A DNA stretch of 14,526 nt from a virus (IMGVR_UViG_2778261256_000010:1-14526); one strand, 5' to 3'; positions 4,043-14,526 are shown, counted from the first letter of the stretch. Notes: generated from the letters alone by a model not told the origin. Program-made: numbers and translations.

Positions 4043-4238
4043 ACGAGAGAAGGAAACCCTGCGTGAAATTAGCAAGTGGAAGGAGTTCTACGCCAACTGG
4101 AAGCCGAAGACCAGAGCCAAACTGGAGCGCATGAATCTTGTCGCCAACGTTTCTCCAAAGGGATGTATTGAGAACTATCAACTGACTGAAAAAGGTTATT
4201 TGTTGTTGCAGCAATTGACTGAGGCGGGGGCGCACTGA
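4026..4238 (+). CDS. small hypothetical protein (70 aa)
   Basis: Strong RBS AAGGAG (4013-4018) 7 nt upstream of ATG 4026; soluble, charged sequence; stop overlaps the next start. Confidence 0.55.
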   Translation: MIMLSKREKETLREISKWKEFYANWKPKTRAKLERMNLVANVSPKGCIENYQLTEKGYLLLQQLTEAGAH

Positions 4239-4390
4239 TGATTCCATACATCATTTTATCTTTTACTGGTGGCGTGGGCCTCGGCCTCGCAATCTGCCGC
4301 GCCCTGGTCCAGCAGGAACTGCAAACCAAAACACTTCGTGTCGGTAAGCGTGTGTATCGGGTTGTTCACGAGACGGGAGTGCGAAAATGA
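4238..4390 (+). CDS. small membrane protein (50 aa), not in the supplied ORF track
   Basis: ATG 4238 overlaps the upstream stop (TGATG); MIPYIILSFTGGVGLGLAICRAL is a TM helix; stop TGA 4388-4390 overlaps the ATG of the next gene (4387). Confidence 0.4.
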   Translation: MIPYIILSFTGGVGLGLAICRALVQQELQTKTLRVGKRVYRVVHETGVRK

Positions 4391-4692
4391 GCAATTTGAC
4401 TTCCTTCGACTGGTGGCTGGCAACCTACCTTGTGGCGGCCGGCTTCGGATTTGCCTTTTACATTGGTCAGTTAATCGTAAAGCTACTGCTGATCAGATTC
4501 GCCAGCCATAAACGCATAGACGACGGTCTGTGGCGTCTGGGGTCCCTGTTAGAGACGCATTACGGCGAACTCAAGGAAAACGAAACTATCACTATTCAAG
4601 CGAAGCGTTTTACCGCCATCATCACGAGAACTCCGGAACAAAAGGGGAGCCTGATCAAAAAGATAGCAACTAAACGCATCACAGATAGATAA
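4387..4692 (+). CDS. small membrane protein (101 aa)
   Basis: N-terminal TM segment WWLATYLVAAGFGFAFYIGQLIV followed by a charged C-terminal domain; translationally coupled to the preceding small gene. Confidence 0.6.
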   Translation: MSNLTSFDWWLATYLVAAGFGFAFYIGQLIVKLLLIRFASHKRIDDGLWRLGSLLETHYGELKENETITIQAKRFTAIITRTPEQKGSLIKKIATKRITDR

Positions 4693-4708
4693 GTATTTAC
4701 TTACTTAT
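4689..4708 (+). repeat. 20-bp motif ATAAGTA-NN-TACTTACTTAT, copy 2
   Basis: ataagtatttacttacttat, overlapping the stop codon of the 101-aa gene; followed by CTAATAT...TATAAGAT, which is shared with copy 3. Confidence 0.55.
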
Positions 4709-4884
4709 CTAATATGTATAAGATCACTTTGTTTTCGTTGAGATGCGACTGTTTGAACGTTAAATATAACTGCAAACGAAGATGCATACCTGGCAGTAGC
4801 CTAAGAAGCCAAACACCAGCGAGGTCAGTTTCCAGCCTCGTCACCAAAATGGGACACACTGAGCGAGTGTGATTGCAGAACGCA

Positions 4885-4916
4885 GAATAGGGCATATTGC
4901 ACCATCCATGCCCTAT
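4885..4916. other. perfect 10-bp-stem hairpin (AATAGGGCAT / ATGCCCTATT, 12-nt loop)
   Basis: Direct reading; no U-tract after it, so not a classical terminator. Confidence 0.5.
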
Positions 4917-5071
4917 TCAATGAAGTAACAGAATGGGCGGTTGGTTTCATCATTCCATTCACCCATCCCGGTTTCAGCTGACCGTCCATTCTGTTACGTC
5001 ATTTCCATTACTTATGTCGTTTATACTTGGGTTAAAAGCGGCGACGTAACCCGGCTGACTTGGTTAGTCAG

Positions 5072-5189
5072 CACATAACGTTGAGATCACTGATTTTTCT
5101 TAAAATCATACAGGCGATTCCACATAGCTGTAGCGACTGATCAATATGTTGGGTTGAACATTAATCGGTTCAGTGATCTCAACGTTGTG
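5072..5189. repeat. 17-bp perfect inverted repeat (5076-5092 / 5169-5185; 20 of 21 if extended) flanking a 76-bp spacer
   Basis: AACGTTGAGATCACTGA and its exact reverse complement TCAGTGATCTCAACGTT; three GATC sites within the element. Confidence 0.55.
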
Positions 5190-5435
5190 AAAGCAGGATT
5201 AATTAACCCTCTAGTGAAAACATTGTTGCCTTTATTGCCCCTGACTTCACAACATGTATGATTCCATACATCCAATAAGATCGAAGAATCTAACGGCAAT
5301 CAACCACCGAGAAAGATTCCAGATCTTCGCTCATATGAGCGAGCCACATACCTCGTCTGGCACTAACGTAAAGTGCAAGTTGCGGGAAAGTTTCTGGCTG
5401 CCTGGTTGTCCATAAGCTAGTACCGCCGCGAAAAT

Positions 5436-5510
5436 GATGGTGTAGCTCAGTGGTAGAGCGGTTGACTGTTAATCAACTGGTCGGTGGTTCGAGTCCACCC
5501 ACCATCGCCA
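5436..5510 (+). tRNA. tRNA-Asn (anticodon GTT at 5468-5470)
   Basis: Folded by hand into a full cloverleaf: 7-bp acceptor stem GATGGTG/CACCATC, D-arm GCTC-AGTGGTA-GAGC, anticodon stem GTTGA/TCAAC with loop CTGTTAA, T-arm GGTGG-TTCGAGT-CCACC, discriminator G, encoded CCA. Confidence 0.9.
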
Positions 5511-5663
5511 ACATAGCGCTGAACGGTTTGGATTCGCCACCACCGTCCGAACGAAAGACTCCGCAAATGTCGCCAGACCGTTCAGCGCTGTGATAGACAC
5601 GGCAGACGTTTTTTAACCATTGCTTCTAAGCATCGTAGCAACACTTTTTTCAGCGCAAAATCC

Positions 5664-5685
5664 AAAGGGGCTTCGGCCCCTTTTT
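5664..5685 (+). terminator. Rho-independent terminator downstream of the tRNA
   Basis: AAAGGGGC-TTCG-GCCCCTTTTT: GC-rich stem, tetraloop, T-run. Confidence 0.7.
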
Positions 5686-5764: not shown

Positions 5765-6313
5765 ATGACGATTATGGAGTCTATCGTGAAATTTAAAATC
5801 CAGCATTTGCAGGCAGCAGTGGCACTGGTTCTTGCCAGTATCCAGCCGCAACCCAAAGCGGTTGCGTGTCAGCCTACGATTGTAGAACGGGTTTATGAGA
5901 TGGGCGCTAGAGTCAACAAAACCGACATCAGTGATCTTACAGCTGCTCTCAATGAATTGGCTAAAGAACTGCGTTCAAGCCGCGCTGAACTTGCTCATTA
6001 TGCTGACACTGACTTCTTTGCTGCTATCAAAGTAGCGGAAGAAATTAAGAATCAAACTATTCATGTAGCCGGTATCGCAGAATCTTTTGTTTTGATGTTA
6101 CCTGAAAAAGACGTCATCATGTCTTACGACAAAAACACTGTTGAGTTTGCGTTTTTTAAGGCTATTAAAATGGTCAGTATTGCGACCAAAAACTATCTCA
6201 ATCTGATTGATCAGATTACACGCACTTCTGTAGTGCGTGACTCTGGTGTCAACCTTTTAGCCATGAACCATCTATTAGAGACTGGCAACAAGGCTGCGGC
6301 TAAATGGCATTAA
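5765..6313 (+). CDS. putative antitoxin-like partner of the YafO-family toxin (182 aa; true start uncertain)
   Basis: ORF ends 10 nt inside the toxin gene (6304-6313 overlap), the usual toxin-antitoxin coupling. No recognisable Phd/YefM or RHH sequence signature; much larger than E. coli YafN (~97 aa). Confidence 0.45.
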   Translation: MTIMESIVKFKIQHLQAAVALVLASIQPQPKAVACQPTIVERVYEMGARVNKTDISDLTAALNELAKELRSSRAELAHYADTDFFAAIKVAEEIKNQTIHVAGIAESFVLMLPEKDVIMSYDKNTVEFAFFKAIKMVSIATKNYLNLIDQITRTSVVRDSGVNLLAMNHLLETGNKAAAKWH

Positions 6314-6720
6314 CGGCTGAATACAGTCAAGTTACGTGGGATGATTTTTTTCAGCCCACTTTTGTCGTTTACCCTGACCTAGAAAGTCAGCTCAAATCCG
6401 AGTTCATTACTTACAAATCAACTGGCGCACCATCTAATCTTCTTGGACGAGATGCGCCATTTGACTTCCCGCCGTTCGCCGTTGATGCTAATGTCCAGCA
6501 TATTCACGTCAATTTGCATTTCCAGCTTACCTGGAACGCAAGGCAAGAGAACTACAACCGAACCTCAAACCACTATCTCGTTTATACCGAGCACATGTGG
6601 GATAGCGGGCGTTTTTTGCTGATGGGGCTAGTCACTCCAGCTCACGATCGTATGCCAGCAAGAGATACTAGGTTGCTCAGCTACTTCGCTGAAGTCGCAG
6701 AAGGTTTCCATTCTAGCTGA
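6304..6720 (+). CDS. yafO: YafO-family type II toxin (ribosome-dependent mRNA interferase family)
   Basis: Aligned by eye to my recollection of E. coli YafO: FITYKSTGAPSNLLGRDAPFD vs FISYKRDGVLPDIFGRDALYD; VQHIHV vs VAHIHL; RTSNHYLVY vs RTNDEAHLVY; FLLMGLVTPAHDRMPARD vs WLLIAILKPEPHKLARD. Confidence 0.7.
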   Translation: MALTAEYSQVTWDDFFQPTFVVYPDLESQLKSEFITYKSTGAPSNLLGRDAPFDFPPFAVDANVQHIHVNLHFQLTWNARQENYNRTSNHYLVYTEHMWDSGRFLLMGLVTPAHDRMPARDTRLLSYFAEVAEGFHSS

Positions 6721-6887: not shown

Positions 6888-6922
6888 AAATGATTCCATA
6901 CTTGTAAGGTATGGAATCATTT
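6888..6922. promoter_or_regulatory. perfect 14-bp inverted repeat AAATGATTCCATAC-N7-GTATGGAATCATTT (candidate operator)
   Basis: Exact palindrome about 100 bp upstream of the recombinase ORF; shares the core TGATTCCATAC with the 15-bp direct repeats at 4238 and 5258. Confidence 0.5.
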
Positions 6923-7020: not shown

Positions 7021-8124
7021 ATGAAAAACACTTTTGATAAAGCACGCGCAGCAGAAAACACCTCTAGAGAAGCCATCGAGTATCTCGAACGCGCTTCCGG
7101 TTTGTCAGCAGTGTCGACCACCAATTTCGACGGTGACATGTCGTTTTCTTCCGCATTCATGTTATTCACTCGCTTATCTTTGCTGATAACGAGACGTCGA
7201 CCTGAAATAGCTGTTCATTGTATTTTGATACATGTAATGCCGCATATCTGTGAAGTAAAAGTAAGTGACATTAGTAGGGTTTTAGTCAACCAGCTGGTGA
7301 ACCCATTAATACTTGAGGGCAAGATCGTCCAGGGCAGACGTGTGTTCTCGCTGATGAAGCAGTTTCTCAGTTGGTGTGCATTTCAGGGCTTAATTGATAC
7401 ATCCCCATTGAACGATATGTCGCTTAACAGAGTAGCCGGTGGCGCGAAGCCCACGCCGCGCGAGCGCAAACTGACCGACGCAGAGGTCTGGGTCTTTTGG
7501 AATGTATGGGACTACTTCAACGTATGTGAGGGTACAAAGTGGGCGGCCAGATTATGCCTTGTAGCGGCCAGACGACCAGATGAAGTGCTCCGAGCTAAAA
7601 GATCAGAATTCAACCTCGAATATAATTTATGGAATCAAGGAACGAGGAATAAATCGGCTCGCCAGCACTCGTTACCATTAAGCCCGCTAATGCGCAAATG
7701 TGTTGAGGAGCTGATCAAATACGGAAAAGGCAGCCAGTGGCTTGTTCCTTCAAACAAGAAACAGGGTGAGGATGTGCCAATGTCTAAGGTGGCCATATCA
7801 CAGGCGTTGAGAAGGATTTTAGAACGTCCAGAGTTGATGGAGCTTGAGCCATTTACCCCCCGAGATTTGCGTCGTACTGCGCGTAGTTACTTCCCCGCGT
7901 TAGGCATAAGTCAGGAGGTATCCCGCAAAATTATGAACCACAGTCTTGAGGGGATAGATCGAGTATACGATCGACACGATTATATAGACGAGATGCGAGA
8001 CGCCTTAAACAGTTTTTCGGCGTACATCGCATCAATCGTAGAGAAACAGGATTTAGAGGAGATAGATCATAAGTTCAAGGGAGATCGACTCGCTACTGAG
8101 CTAATCCGTGTAAATTTCTCATAG
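7021..8124 (+). CDS. tyrosine recombinase/integrase, P4-like catalytic core; arm-binding N-terminal domain absent, first ~60 aa unrelated
   Basis: Core-binding-like segment from about aa 70 (HVMPHICEVKVSDISRVL...VFSLMKQFLSWCAFQGLIDTSPLNDMS); catalytic signatures ARRPDEVL (box I Arg), FTPRDLRRTA (box II, with R where His is usual), NHS, and RVYDRHDY (catalytic Tyr). Confidence 0.65.
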   Translation: MKNTFDKARAAENTSREAIEYLERASGLSAVSTTNFDGDMSFSSAFMLFTRLSLLITRRRPEIAVHCILIHVMPHICEVKVSDISRVLVNQLVNPLILEGKIVQGRRVFSLMKQFLSWCAFQGLIDTSPLNDMSLNRVAGGAKPTPRERKLTDAEVWVFWNVWDYFNVCEGTKWAARLCLVAARRPDEVLRAKRSEFNLEYNLWNQGTRNKSARQHSLPLSPLMRKCVEELIKYGKGSQWLVPSNKKQGEDVPMSKVAISQALRRILERPELMELEPFTPRDLRRTARSYFPALGISQEVSRKIMNHSLEGIDRVYDRHDYIDEMRDALNSFSAYIASIVEKQDLEEIDHKFKGDRLATELIRVNFS

Positions 8125-11413: not shown

Positions 11414-11680
11414 ATGACCGCTACTGCACTACAGCAAGAAGAACATTTGCCGGAAGCCATCGTCTGCAAGTGGTGTGGCAAATCCTTTCATTACCTGAAA
11501 TCCCATATCTCTATGGGCCGTTGCGAGAATATTCCTGAGTCTGCGAAGGGTCTGGACGTGGACGAAGTGGTGAAGATGTACACCTCTGCGTTTCCAGATG
11601 AACCAACGATCTCTCGCACGGCACTGGCCAAACTCAATGAGAAGGGGTCGTTTGCGGGAGGGGGCGGAATCCTACGCTAA
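11414..11680 (+). pseudogene. Ros/MucR-type zinc-finger mini-protein, 3' end replaced by the Tn3-family inverted repeat (native part 11414-11643)
   Basis: RBS AAGGA 6 nt upstream. IVCKWCGKSFHYLKSHI matches the Ros/MucR zinc-finger IVCLECGGSFKSLKRHL, and SRTALAKLNEKG matches ARSRLAKEMGLG. From codon 78 the ORF is encoded by the transposon IR (GSFAGGGGILR). Confidence 0.5.
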
Positions 11681-11681
11681 G
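11644..11681. repeat. Tn3-family 38-bp terminal inverted repeat (GGGG...ACGCTAAG)
   Basis: GGGGTCGTTTGCGGGAGGGGGCGGAATCCTACGCTAAG; outer GGGG at 11644; the tnpA stop (CTA on +, 11677-11679) lies inside the IR, as is typical of the family. Confidence 0.8.
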
Positions 11682-14449
11682 GCTTTGGCCAGCGATATTC
11701 TCCGGTGAGATTGATGTGTTCCCATCCGAGCGGCGAAACATGGGCCAAGAGATCGGGCGATAGCAGCTTTCCATCGCGTTTCTGGTTTGCAACGACCTCG
11801 CCGAGCTTCATGGTGTTCCAGAAGATGATGATGGCGGCGAGCAGATTCATGCCGGCGATGCGGTAATGCTGGCCTTCGGCGGAACGGTCGCGGATTTCAC
11901 CGCGGCGGTGGAAGCTGATTGCCCGCTTCAGCGCATGATGAGCTTCGCCTTTGTTGAGCCCGATCTGGGCACGCCGTTGGAGTTCGGCATCCAGAATCCA
12001 GTCGATCATGAACAGGGTGCGCTCGACGCGACCGACTTCCCGCAGGGCTGTCGCGAGCTCGTTCTGCCGCGGATAGGAGGCGAGTTTCCGCAGAATCTGG
12101 CTTGGCGCGACGGTCCCGGCAGCAATGGTGGCGGCGATGCGCAGGATGTCGGGCCAATTGCGCTCGATCATGGCTTGGTTGACCTTTCCGCCGATCAACG
12201 CTCGCAGGTGCGCCGGGGCGGCCGACGGATTGAACGCGTAGAGCCGTTTGGATGGCAGGTCGCGGATGCGCGGAGCGAACCGGTAGCCGAGAATGGCACA
12301 TGCGGCAAAGACGTGATCGGTGAAGCCGCCCGTGTCGGTGAACTGCTCGCGGATATGGCGTCCAGCATCGTTCATCAGCAGGCCATCGAGGATGTAAGGC
12401 GCTTCGCTTGCCGTTGCAGGAATCACCTGGGTTGCGAACGGCGCATATTGGTCGGAGACGTGGCTATAGGCTTTCAGGCCCGGGGTATTGCCATATTTCG
12501 CGTTGACCAGGTTCATGGCCTCACCTTGCTCTGTAGCGACGAAGAACTGTCCGTCGCTCGAAGCCGACGTGCCCATGCCCCAGAACCGGGCCATGGGTAA
12601 CGCTGCCTGTGCCTCGACCACCATGGCCAGCGCCCGGTCATAGGCTTCGCCCTCGACATGCCACCGTCCAATGCGGATCAATTCCCAGAAGGTGTGGGTG
12701 TTTGTCGCATCCGCCATTTTGCGCAAGCCGAGGTTGATCCCTTCCGCCAAGATAACGTTCATTAGCCCGATCCGGTCAGCGCAGGGTGCTCCTGTGCGCA
12801 GATGGGTGAACGCTTCGGTGAAGCCGGTCGCCGCATCCACCTCCAGCAGGAGATCGGTGATGCGCGTGGGCGGGATCTGCTTGTAGAGATCGAGCACCAG
12901 ATCTTCGGCGCCTGTCGGCGCGGCGGCTTCGAGTTTCTCGATATGCAGAACGCCGTTTTCAATCGACCCGCCCGGGATCGTGCCTGCGCGAGCGGCACGG
13001 CCAAGCTCGCGCAACCGCATGTCGAGGCGAGCTTGCCGGTCTGCCAGCCATTCCTCCGGCCGCAATGGCACAGCGAGACGACCGCCTTCCGCGATGGATT
13101 GTGCCGGAACGAGTGCGTGTTTCAGATCGCCATAGCGCCGGGACCTAGTAAGCCAGACATCTCCGGAGCGGAACGCATCGCGCAGATGGAACAGCACCGC
13201 GATCTCCCATAGGCGAGCGTCGCCAGCCCTCTGGGCCCGAAGGTGGCGATGCCATTTCGAGCTGGGCCGCAAGAAGCTGGTCATCGCGGCATCGTTCAAA
13301 CCGGTACGAAGGGCCGTCACCGCTTCCAGAAGCGGCAGTGCAACGGGCGCAGCTCGCAGATCGAGCAGGCGCAACATGCGTGGAGCGTATCGGCGGAAGC
13401 GGTGATAACCGTCGAGCACATGATTGAGCGGATCGTCGGCCATGGTGGCGGTCAGCCTGGTTGCCATTGCAACAAGGGTTTTTAAGCCGTCCCACCCTGA
13501 CCCACTCGCGATGACATCGCCCAGCGGCTGGCCATCATCCTGTGCATCGACCAGGGCGCCCCCGATCTCGGCGAAGGATTTCAGGGTGTCACGCACCACC
13601 CCCGCTTCGTCTGCGACCTTTGCATGGCAAATACGCTCCGAAGCACGGTAGAGACGGCCGACGATCCGGTCGTGGGTTTCGACCACTGCGTCGGCCAACA
13701 TCGCCTGCCATTCCGAGACGCAAACAGCCAAGATCGCAAGCCGCCTGTCCTCCGGGAGATCGCGCATGCCGTCGGCATAATACCGTTCACCCTGCCTGCG
13801 CAGACGAGTCACCCGATGGGCAGGAACGCCGGCAAGCAGATCCTCGGGGAGATCGATGCGTTGCAGATATTCGAGCCGGTCGAGCAGCCGGTTGGCCGAC
13901 GAAGAGTTCGAGCCAGGCTCGAACTGGCGCAGCCACACAAAACGGGTCACCCGATCATCAGCCGTCTCCTCGAGCAATGCCAGCAACTGTTCTCGGATCG
14001 ACATAGGCAGCCGACTGGCGATCCTCGTCTCGATGCGTCGCTCGGCATCGACGAGAGCCGCGGCACAAAGCCGCTCGATCGTGGATGTCGCGGGAAGGAC
14101 AGTGCGGGTGCGTCGGCACTCGGCTACGAAGCGACGGGCGATATCCTCGTTCGACACCGCCATCTCGGCTTCTCGGAACAACCATTCCTTCAGCTCGCTC
14201 GCACCACGTCCGGAGAAGGTGCGGAAGCCGTAGAGCCCCCGTAACTCGGCAAGATGCTCGTGCCGTGTTTCCTCGCGGGCAGCATAGTCTACGAGATCGT
14301 CGGCACCCAGGCCAAGCTGCGCTCCGATAAATTCGATGACCTCTGCAGGGATCAGTTCGCCTGGAGCCAGCACCCGGCCGGGATAGCGCAGGACACACAA
14401 TTGCAGGGCGAAGCCGAACCTGTTGTGAGCGCGCCGACGCAGCCTGATA
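11644..14449 (-). mobile_element. Tn3-family transposon remnant (one IR plus 5'-truncated tnpA; no res, tnpR or cargo in view)
   Basis: High-GC block bounded by the 38-bp IR on the left and the IS10 outside end on the right. Confidence 0.8.
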
Positions 14450-14505
14450 CTGATGAATCCCCTAATGATTTTTATCAAAATCATTAAGTTAAGGTAGATA
14501 CACAT
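11677..14505 (-). CDS. tnpA: Tn3-family transposase TnpA, 5'-truncated (first ~18 codons of the ORF are IS10-derived; native part 11677-14449)
   Basis: 942-aa ORF; C-terminus ...LSPLGWEHINLTGEYRW is the Tn3-family signature; N-proximal SIRLRRRAHNRFGFALQLCVLRYPG matches Tn21 TnpA near residue 37-60 (recalled), so about 35 N-terminal residues are missing. Opposite-strand ORFs in this block are GC-rich shadows. Confidence 0.9.
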   Translation of the reverse strand: MCIYLNLMILIKIIRGFISIRLRRRAHNRFGFALQLCVLRYPGRVLAPGELIPAEVIEFIGAQLGLGADDLVDYAAREETRHEHLAELRGLYGFRTFSGRGASELKEWLFREAEMAVSNEDIARRFVAECRRTRTVLPATSTIERLCAAALVDAERRIETRIASRLPMSIREQLLALLEETADDRVTRFVWLRQFEPGSNSSSANRLLDRLEYLQRIDLPEDLLAGVPAHRVTRLRRQGERYYADGMRDLPEDRRLAILAVCVSEWQAMLADAVVETHDRIVGRLYRASERICHAKVADEAGVVRDTLKSFAEIGGALVDAQDDGQPLGDVIASGSGWDGLKTLVAMATRLTATMADDPLNHVLDGYHRFRRYAPRMLRLLDLRAAPVALPLLEAVTALRTGLNDAAMTSFLRPSSKWHRHLRAQRAGDARLWEIAVLFHLRDAFRSGDVWLTRSRRYGDLKHALVPAQSIAEGGRLAVPLRPEEWLADRQARLDMRLRELGRAARAGTIPGGSIENGVLHIEKLEAAAPTGAEDLVLDLYKQIPPTRITDLLLEVDAATGFTEAFTHLRTGAPCADRIGLMNVILAEGINLGLRKMADATNTHTFWELIRIGRWHVEGEAYDRALAMVVEAQAALPMARFWGMGTSASSDGQFFVATEQGEAMNLVNAKYGNTPGLKAYSHVSDQYAPFATQVIPATASEAPYILDGLLMNDAGRHIREQFTDTGGFTDHVFAACAILGYRFAPRIRDLPSKRLYAFNPSAAPAHLRALIGGKVNQAMIERNWPDILRIAATIAAGTVAPSQILRKLASYPRQNELATALREVGRVERTLFMIDWILDAELQRRAQIGLNKGEAHHALKRAISFHRRGEIRDRSAEGQHYRIAGMNLLAAIIIFWNTMKLGEVVANQKRDGKLLSPDLLAHVSPLGWEHINLTGEYRWPKP

Positions 14506-14526
14506 CTTGTCATATGATCAAATGGT
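14450..14526 (+). mobile_element. IS10-like outside end (5' portion of a second IS10 copy, continuing past the window)
   Basis: CTGATGAATCCCCTAATGATTTTTATCAAAATCATTAAGTTAAGGTAGATACACATCTTGTCATATGATCAAATGGT matches my recollection of the IS10 outside end and pIN/pOUT region with a few substitutions. Confidence 0.8.

Follow-up and report, generated by a model that had tools for sequence, protein, structure and literature searches.

A conserved phage RNA resembling the tag-template and pseudoknot part of tmRNA in four groups of enterobacterial phages

The viral DNA stretch IMGVR_UViG_2778261256_000010:1-14526 (14,526 nt; the whole of it is called the window below, and coordinates refer to it) comes from an Escherichia coli SSU5-type phage-plasmid. 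Between a small conserved gene, phrog_4507 (4387-4692), and a tRNA-Asn(GUU) gene (5436-5510; called by ARAGORN, and by Rfam at 76.2 bits) it carries a non-coding RNA locus, all three lying on the + strand. Over 4693-5435 the sequence has 100% identity with plasmid pLAO18 and 91% with Salmonella phage SSU5 (BLAST). We find that the locus specifies a structured + strand RNA whose tag region is homologous to that of transfer-messenger RNA (tmRNA, SsrA). Its tmRNA-like core (4731-4883) comprises a 5' hairpin region, a tag template, a helix-5-like stem and two pseudoknots; the peptide spelled by the template is under constraint, and the core is widely distributed among phages. A new, widespread phage RNA derived from tmRNA is the best description of the element, which may act in host trans-translation.

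An original prediction, made from the sequence, had proposed that this hairpin-dense region was a structured RNA, an origin of transfer (oriT) or of replication, or a miniature inverted-repeat transposable element (MITE). The structured RNA is supported, since the helices covary in relatives; the oriT, origin and MITE readings are not. Absent from that prediction were the tag frame (4772-4804), the pseudoknots (4820-4883), two of the hairpins described below (M3, 5012-5049, and M6, 5184-5253) and the likeness to tmRNA.

Results

A ten-codon tag-like frame under peptide-level constraint

The tag-like frame (4772-4804, + strand) reads GCA AAC GAA GAT GCA TAC CTG GCA GTA GCC TAA, or ANEDAYLAVA followed by a stop. 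Its ten codons begin at GCA (Ala) with neither a start codon nor a Shine-Dalgarno sequence, and an A-rich tract precedes them. In alignments of related loci the A at position -4 of the frame is invariant, and position -5 is U in most lineages and C in Cyrano. We take these two positions to be those of U85 and A86 in E. coli tmRNA, nucleotides whose functional meaning reportedly comes from published mutagenesis in E. coli. Searched against the E. coli smpB-ssrA locus, a covariance model of the phage cores (R1) finds its best match in the ssrA tag region; the match is weak (11.3 bits, E = 0.24) and aligns the two frames codon for codon, their resume codons and stops coinciding. A comparison with Rfam, suggested at the outset, gave weak matches far below the cut-offs: beta_tmRNA and tmRNA_permuted are the only families that touch the region, and both are aligned at the resume codon.

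The same ten-codon frame is present in all related loci, with the peptide consensus AN[DE]xx[YF]LAVA. A second scan, keyed on the pseudoknot region alone and making no use of the tag, returned 88 DNA stretches and exposed tag variants that had been invisible to the first pattern. One Kuttervirus group, whose tag is ANDNTFLAVA, has GCT AAT GAT AAC ACG TTC where GCA AAC GAT AAT ACG TTC stands elsewhere, and both read ANDNTF. Synonymous variants are found along the frame (GCA/GCC, GTA/GTG, GCC/GCT, TAC/TAT and TTC/TTT, with TAA or TAG as the stop), and the amino-acid replacements are conservative (D, E or N at codons 3-4, Y or F at codon 6, one V to A and one N to K). The overlapping +1 frame, read from the related-locus alignments, shows no amino-acid conservation. 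This combination of synonymous and conservative changes with an unconserved +1 frame is the signature of selection on the peptide, and it provides the strongest case for the tag being decoded.

Covarying helices and pseudoknots of the core

Model R1, built from 46 phage cores, matches the window at 4727-4895 with 128.5 bits (E 1e-24). Covariation in the core was counted on 33 non-SSU5 sequences aligned to R1 (alignment A5); the SSU5-like rows were left out because in those rows of the model-based alignment A4 the 3' strand of pseudoknot A is one column out of place. The 25 pairs of the core helices are 98.9% paired, against 31-42% in slid controls, with compensatory changes in eight pairs (49 cells) and a ratio of G-U to A-C cells of 76 to 2.

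The helix-5-like stem (4790-4819), formed by CUGG (4790-4793) and CCAG (4816-4819), holds the stop codon in its apical part. Its outer 4 bp are invariant in the 33 sequences, and an inner 3-bp stem varies between C-G, U-G and U-A. Directly downstream lies pseudoknot A (4820-4854; stem 1, 4820-4824/4836-4840; stem 2, 4830-4834/4850-4854). Both of its stems are 99-100% paired in the 33 homologues, with compensatory changes in 3/5 pairs of stem 1 and 2/4 of stem 2, and the GCGAGG/CCUCGU of the SSU5 type is a further compensated variant. Pseudoknot B (4855-4883) follows. Its stem 1, CACACU (4855-4860)/AGUGUG (4866-4871), is 100% paired and contains two covarying pairs. Its stem 2, GCG (4863-4865)/CGC (4881-4883), has only 3 bp in the window and is tentative; in other lineages it takes the forms GCCC/GGGC, GCCCUGA/UCAGGGC, GACGGGAG/CUCCCGUC and GCCCAC/GUGGGC, differing in length and sequence from one lineage to another while complementarity is kept. 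Judged by position only, the two pseudoknots would be orthologous to PK2 and PK3 of tmRNA. Lambdoid and Kuttervirus copies have an additional stem 5' of the tag, CUUUGCGG/CCACAAAG, a candidate for PK1, which is invariant and shows no covariation; the segment is absent from SSU5-like and FelixO1-like copies.

Six hairpin modules follow the core in SSU5-type elements

Downstream of the core, SSU5-type elements contain six hairpin modules, M1-M6 (4885-5253). The RNAalifold consensus for M1-M5, taken from 17 SSU5-like sequences of 74-92% identity, contains 12 predicted pairs that are compensated. Across M1-M6 in the 17 relatives, 74 pairs are 98.0% paired and 16 of them have changes on both sides; shifting the partners by 1-3 columns lowers pairing to 30-52%. 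The paired arms are therefore conserved with compensatory changes in homologous loci, which is the comparison that the original prediction had called for. Among the paired cells there are 162 G-U and 9 A-C. A G-U pair of the + strand turns into A-C, a mismatch, when read on the - strand, and this asymmetry therefore identifies the selected structure as RNA of the + strand, which is also that of tRNA-Asn, and argues against double-stranded palindromes bound by protein. The + strand of 4731-5260 folds at -170.4 kcal/mol, compared with -132.4 +/- 6.4 for shuffled sequences (z = -5.9; 0/100 shuffles as good), bearing out the early remark that inverted repeats are denser here than chance allows; the - strand reaches z = -4.7.

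All of the repeats listed in the original prediction are present, within 1-2 nt of where it placed them. M1 (4885-4918), first described as a 10-bp hairpin at 4885-4916, is a perfect 11-bp stem (4885-4895/4908-4918), 100% paired and covarying in five of seven counted pairs. What had been a 12-bp inverted repeat is the core of the long hairpin M2 (4919-5003), with 23-nt arms (4919-4941/4981-5003) that are 91% complementary; its 25 pairs are 99% paired, three with compensatory changes and five with changes to or from G-U. M3 (5012-5021/5040-5049), predicted by RNAalifold, hardly varies and so provides little evidence (eight of its ten pairs never change and none covaries). The 7-bp hairpin became M4 (5054-5060/5066-5072; RNAalifold), with one compensated pair. 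M5 (5074-5189) is a long-range hairpin in which the 17-bp perfect inverted repeat, at 5077-5093/5170-5186, forms part of 20-nt arms (5074-5093/5170-5189, 95% complementary). Its 19 pairs are 98.5% paired and three covary, one of them being A-U in nine sequences and G-C in eight, and the arms are orthologous across relatives (GAGAUCAC/GUGAUCUC, GAGACCAC/GUGGUCUC, GAGGCCAC/GUGGCCUC). They enclose a variable 76-nt insert that contains a small conserved hairpin (5145-5161). The three GATC sites remarked upon earlier are present at 5085, 5139 and 5175 and are not conserved, with GGCC or GACC at those places in relatives. M6 (5184-5253; GUUGUGAA.../...UUCACAAC) is an inverted repeat with four of seven counted pairs covarying; 6 nt of it are shared with the 3' arm of M5, and its register is imperfect in some alignment rows. 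Closer to the tRNA, a small hairpin, GCAC-UAACGUAAA-GUGC (5360-5376; alifold), is conserved, and in Klebsiella types it is compensated to GUG/CAC as judged by eye.

An alternative long-range pairing, 4736-4744/5176-5184, is compensated in Klebsiella types and mismatched in SSU5, Cronobacter and Cyrano. It was set aside in favour of the local 5074-5093/5170-5189 helix because the latter covaries consistently. One lineage, represented by a Klebsiella plasmid (L010), is without M5 owing to a deletion between AACGTTG direct repeats that also removed part of the arms. The orthologous tRNA of this plasmid (2163-2237), otherwise 96% identical, has the anticodon GGT (called Thr) in place of GTT (Asn), a single-base change.

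Conventional coding does not account for the region. Five open reading frames (ORFs) of 52-64 aa overlap it in the window, and none is open and in frame across 18 SSU5-like relatives; all five of the ORFs of at least 50 aa are broken by frameshifts or stops in at least 10 of the 18. As these frames are not conserved, and indels of 1, 2 and 10 nt are tolerated among relatives, the region is non-coding in the conventional sense, as the original finding of no credible ORF had implied.

Distribution and genomic setting

The locus stretch is conserved in 808 plasmids from Klebsiella, Escherichia, Enterobacter, Yersinia, Salmonella and other genera. The core occurs in 246 of 5426 complete E. coli genomes (~4.5%), in every case on a plasmid and nearly always without annotation, and the locus is likewise unannotated in nearly all of the matching records listed (Salmonella phage SSU5, PGAP-annotated plasmids and E. 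coli). A pattern scan of IMG/VR recovered core and tag frame together in at least 119 contigs belonging to four phage groups: SSU5-like elements (100-114 kb); FelixO1-like phages (85-90 kb), with the core inside tRNA arrays; Kuttervirus (155-160 kb), with the core adjoining tRNA arrays; and lambdoid phages (~46-50 kb), in which the Q antiterminator lies on one side of the core and the lysis genes on the other, as in Cronobacter phage ENT47670. BLAST also matches 4727-4848 to FelixO1-like and Kuttervirus phages. Across the groups, the neighbours of the core are tRNA genes or the lambdoid late leader. A scan of bacterial genome contigs with the pattern AACACCAGNNNGGTN{1,4}TTCC was discarded, the pattern being too loose and all 120 loci chance matches.

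The element is carried by typhoid (pHCM2-type) and plague (pMT1) plasmids. The Yersinia pestis pMT copy (L006 2501-3022, equivalent to window ~4693-5210) retains the core and M1-M5 at 90% identity, and has lost M6, the 15-mer ATGATTCCATACATC and tRNA-Asn. Homology in pMT1 ends at ~5210, where caf1R and the F1 capsule operon start. More broadly, the DNA 3' of the tRNA is a hot spot for cargo across relatives, including YafO, AbiG, AbiH, IS elements and caf.

Candidates for a tRNA-like domain

Three candidates for a tRNA-like partner of the core were considered and rejected. An acceptor-like helix between GUUUUCG (4731-4737) and CGAAAAU (5429-5435), ending at the 5' boundary of tRNA-Asn, is not conserved, as Klebsiella types lack its 3' strand and Cyrano types have it only in a weak form. 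A tRNA-like module with a T arm (GGGUUCGAAUCCC) stands beside the core in 8 of ~70 lambdoid loci checked; being found in few loci and having no G3-U70, it is not a general partner. Finally, ARAGORN calls a 'permuted tmRNA' in phage Moogle, in which the 5' domain sits inside tRNA-Lys, making the tRNA-like part an artefact. Announcements of FelixO1-like genomes mention an ssrA gene on the basis of ARAGORN (PMC4319497), and a call of the Moogle type probably underlies these remarks. The predicted duplex between the core and E. coli tmRNA (-84.3 kcal/mol; shuffles -81.7 +/- 6.9) gives no sign of pairing.

The lambdoid loci have modules of their own. In L017, L025, L027 and L028 the late leader, from ~100 nt before the core to 500 nt after it, contains tandem long-stem modules. 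These have the form ACAACAG-GUAAGAGCAUUG...insert...CAGUGCUCUUUCC-GUUGUG; a few loci have as their insert a tRNA-like unit of 60 nt that possesses a D-like arm and the T arm described above, without an anticodon arm. Many lambdoid loci close with GUUGUGGUGAAUGCGCAGGCUGAUGCGC...CCGGAGUUCAGCACCGGCCACCACAAC ahead of a terminator. None of these structures has an Rfam match. Downstream modules in lambdoid, Felix and Kutter loci were similarly not recognised by Rfam.

Predicted transcription unit and neighbouring features

A putative sigma-70 promoter (4696-4724, + strand; -35 TTTACT at 4696-4701, 17-nt spacer, -10 TAAGAT at 4719-4724) was read from the sequence and falls below the 9/12 cut-off of the promoter scan. 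In every SSU5-like relative the block TAAGTATTTACTTA is conserved along with the -10, which reads TATGAT in Klebsiella types. Stronger promoters stand at the same distance from GUUUUCG in FelixO1-like (TTGACA-N17-TATAGT) and lambdoid (TTGACA-N17-TAGATT) phages. Transcription would proceed from this candidate promoter, with a predicted start near G4731. The terminator scan lists no site within 4731-5436. Downstream of the tRNA, an intrinsic-terminator-like hairpin, AAAGGGGC-UUCG-GCCCCUUU followed by a T run (5664-5685, + strand), likely marks the end of the unit; it too is a reading of the sequence and is absent from the scan, which lists 5587-5603 instead. The tRNA-Asn is likely the 3' member of the same transcript as the core, in which case a single rightward precursor would be cut by RNase P at the 5' end of the tRNA. 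A 20-nt inverted repeat directly 3' of tRNA-Asn (5512-5592; CATAGCGCTGAACGGTTTGG/CCAGACCGTTCAGCGCTGTG, 90% complementary) may be a processing or termination structure.

Also directly 3' of the tRNA is a two-gene cassette (5765-6720) ending in a YafO-family toxin gene (6304-6720; Pfam E = 1e-19). YafO is a ribosome-dependent mRNA nuclease and would make non-stop messages of the kind handled by trans-translation. As cargo, the cassette belongs to this plasmid only, so its adjacency to the locus may be coincidental.

The 15-bp repeat ATGATTCCATACATC noted at the start is present at 5258-5272 (+ strand), where it is nearly invariant in the SSU5-like relatives that retain the segment, and again at 4238-4252, where a single half-site copy stands at the head of ORF 4238-4390. 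If up to 3 mismatches are allowed, the window contains 6 matches, against 0.43 expected. An inverted pair of the motif (6890-6920) lies within 6888-6922, AAATGATTCCATAC-TTGTAAG-GTATGGAATCATTT, where 14-bp inverted repeats flank a 7-bp spacer. This site, which also accounts for a weak Rfam 'GAIT' match, resembles a lox/dif-type core site and is found ~100 bp upstream of a tyrosine integrase gene (7021-8124). The 5258-5272 motif is probably a half-site of this lox-like site and may be outside the function of the RNA. At the far end of the window (11677-14526) are a 942-aa transposase gene (- strand, phrog_7951) and a partial match to the IS10 antisense RNA-OUT (14495-14526, 35.3 bits), cut by the window edge.

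Discussion

With moderate confidence, we favour the explanation that this is a phage tmRNA-derived tag-template RNA, sharing a transcript with tRNA-Asn and acting in host trans-translation. The 5' 150 nt would descend from tmRNA, from which the tag template, the helix-5-like stem and two pseudoknots would have been kept; the six SSU5-specific modules lie 3' of this part. The core would serve as an alternative tag template, such that rescued nascent chains would end in ...[YF]LAVA and not in the ClpXP degron ...YALAA, and this altered tag would change the fate of rescued chains during phage growth. In terms of the ssrA degron, ...[YF]LAVA differs from the LAA terminus recognised by ClpX, and the AANDExY-like part bound by SspB is kept. 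In some settings tagging by tmRNA is known to limit the propagation of phages and plasmids (PMC6207430), which makes a phage-encoded modifier of the tag biologically plausible.

Several observations weigh against this explanation. The Rfam scores are far below the gathering thresholds (beta_tmRNA, 11.9-14.7 bits against 84; tmRNA_permuted, 12.3-15.5 against 47). ARAGORN calls no tmRNA in the window or in 12 relatives, nor does it call one anywhere on the 112-kb pLAO18 with the default and 90% thresholds. At the gathering threshold, Rfam finds only tRNA-Asn on pLAO18, besides an unrelated IS009 match (L303 9254-9452, 189.5 bits) that overlaps a tail-fibre assembly gene outside the window. Like tmRNA, the core has an mRNA-like domain with a resume codon, frame-setting nucleotides, and a helix-5-like stem that encloses the stop and is followed by pseudoknots; it fails to qualify as a tmRNA because no tRNA-like domain was found. 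Parts of pseudoknot B, M1 or M5 are deleted in some plasmid copies, from which it follows that plasmid maintenance does not require the element. We know of no route by which a tag template could enter a stalled ribosome without a chargeable tRNA-like end. Furthermore, what a ...LAVA ending would mean for ClpXP is a prediction from mutagenesis of the ssrA degron.

A more specific proposal is that the core, in four unrelated enterobacterial phage groups, is a free-standing tag template with no tRNA-like domain that rescued ribosomes nevertheless decode. Host tmRNA-SmpB would receive the template in trans, or an adaptor would load it, and the host degradation tag would be rewritten to ...LAVA. 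We put this forward tentatively, as possible rather than probable.

The RNA might instead act without being translated, as a decoy or sponge: by mimicking the message-and-pseudoknot part of tmRNA it would titrate factors such as S1, RNase R or SmpB on the ribosome, and host ribosome rescue would be damped or redirected. The absence of any detected tRNA-like domain, which makes the known decoding route impossible, is in keeping with such a role, as are the conserved, covarying pseudoknots. There is also a precedent for the mirror case in phage DS6A, which has a remnant tRNA-like domain, a similar molecule being inhibitory to tmRNA (PMC4131195). However, a pure RNA decoy would not be expected to accumulate synonymous substitutions and conservative replacements that keep the peptide, nor to hold the stop codon and frame length invariant, and we consider this explanation unlikely.

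More doubtful still is a role outside ribosome rescue, in which the RNA is a precursor scaffold or stable RNA, serving as a leader for tRNA processing, stability or dosage, or sponging small RNAs, and the tmRNA-like part is an exapted relic. The locus is indeed always beside tRNA genes or within the leader of a late operon, nothing in tmRNA corresponds to M1-M6, and arrays of similar long-stem modules occur in the lambdoid relatives. The Y. pestis pMT copy, which keeps 4693-5210 after loss of the tRNA, has also been counted in its favour. What a scaffold leaves unexplained is why a ten-codon frame, its alanine first codon, the A at -4 (with U usual at -5) and the position of the stop should all be kept in four lineages amid synonymous variation.

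The two remaining rivals are poorly supported. A DNA-level element, whether an origin of transfer, replication or packaging, a substrate for a recombinase or a MITE, that works by forming cruciforms or by binding protein at its inverted repeats would fit the dense exact inverted repeats, the conserved recombinase-site-like 15-mer at 5258-5272 and the caf1 island junction at ~5210 in Y. pestis pMT. Nonetheless, the excess of G-U over A-C is unlike double-stranded DNA sites, and the same core occurs in the tRNA arrays of virulent phages. An oriT finds no backing in the region, which contains no MOBP, MOBQ or F-type nick consensus, and 778 of the 808 matching plasmids are typed as non-mobilizable. 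A replication origin fares no better: DnaA boxes are absent even when 1 mismatch is allowed, the promoter-like 4693-4742 is the only AT-rich block, and repA (IncFIB) lies ~29 kb from the locus, with a ParB-like gene also elsewhere on the plasmid. For a phage lytic origin, sequence alone does not settle the matter. A MITE is not borne out by the relatives; 5074-5189 occupies the same place in nearly all relatives with covarying arms, an orthologous and not an inserted element, and its loss in L010 is a deletion between direct repeats rather than an insertion with such duplications. We regard the DNA-level reading as very improbable. Conventionally translated small proteins are barely credible, for while the five ORFs do overlap the region, none is conserved as an open frame, indels are tolerated, PGAP annotation is absent in almost all matching plasmid and E. 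coli records listed, and the amino-acid sequence read in the +1 frame of the tag is not conserved.

A conserved, covarying phage RNA consisting of the mRNA-like and pseudoknot part alone challenges the definition of tmRNA. The challenge is sharper for the tag peptide being under purifying selection in temperate, virulent and plasmid-like phages, and it raises the question of whether a tag template can work without its own tRNA-like domain or whether the RNA is a mimic that disarms ribosome rescue. If the former is true, a template decoded in trans would represent a new mode of trans-translation and a new form of viral takeover of protein quality control. In practical terms, the element escapes ARAGORN, Rfam and PGAP, and its FelixO1-type and Kuttervirus carriers are phages under consideration for therapy.

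Compared with tmRNA itself (RF00023, RF01850), the phage RNA shares a tag template that starts at an alanine codon without a start codon, the A-rich tract upstream and the A at -4, usually with U at -5. Both have a ten-codon tag of the proteobacterial type AND(E/N)x(Y/F)..., ANDENYALAA in E. coli and ANEDAYLAVA in the window, each beginning at GCA, and in both the stop codon lies in the loop of a helix 5 or helix-5-like stem with H-type pseudoknots directly downstream. In contrast to tmRNA, the phage RNA shows no acceptor stem, T arm, G3-U70 or CCA end (none was found), has no long closing helix 2, and in the window extends only ~40 nt from its 5' end to the resume codon, with no clear PK1. 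Its tag ends in LAVA where that of E. coli ends in ALAA, and elements of the SSU5 type have the six extra hairpin modules. The T4 species 1 and 2 RNAs and the lambda PR'-tR' '6S' leader RNA are stable structured RNAs of tRNA clusters and of the late leader, respectively. They resemble the present element in genomic setting, being co-transcribed with phage tRNAs or located in a late-operon leader; they have no tag-like frame, and the likeness seen is one of setting.

Two-piece tmRNA (RF04321, tmRNA_permuted) also has its tag template on a separate 'coding piece', and its consensus at the resume codon, UAAAUGCAAACGAUAAC, is near-identical to that of the phage RNA. Its coding piece, however, has the 5' acceptor strand at its start, and directly upstream lies the sequence of an acceptor piece that bears the T arm and CCA, whereas the phage locus has neither and is preceded by the phrog_4507 gene and then the promoter-like site. 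Our literature searches returned no described tmRNA without a tRNA-like domain and no ssrA-like phage RNA of this kind. The tmRNA database papers record phage ssrA genes in mycobacteriophages and Bacillus phage G only, with no enterobacterial phage or plasmid entry (PMC4131195, PMC11915505). Among these, mycobacteriophage DS6A is a remnant with little beyond the tRNA-like domain (PMC4131195, PMC11915505), and a DS6A-like molecule inhibits tmRNA, perhaps by titrating SmpB (PMC4131195). Like the element described here, DS6A has a phage-borne partial tmRNA, and it shows that a phage genome can contain half of the molecule and that such a half may disturb trans-translation in the host. In DS6A the tRNA-like half remains and the tag is missing; the present element is its mirror image, in which the tag and the pseudoknots are kept.

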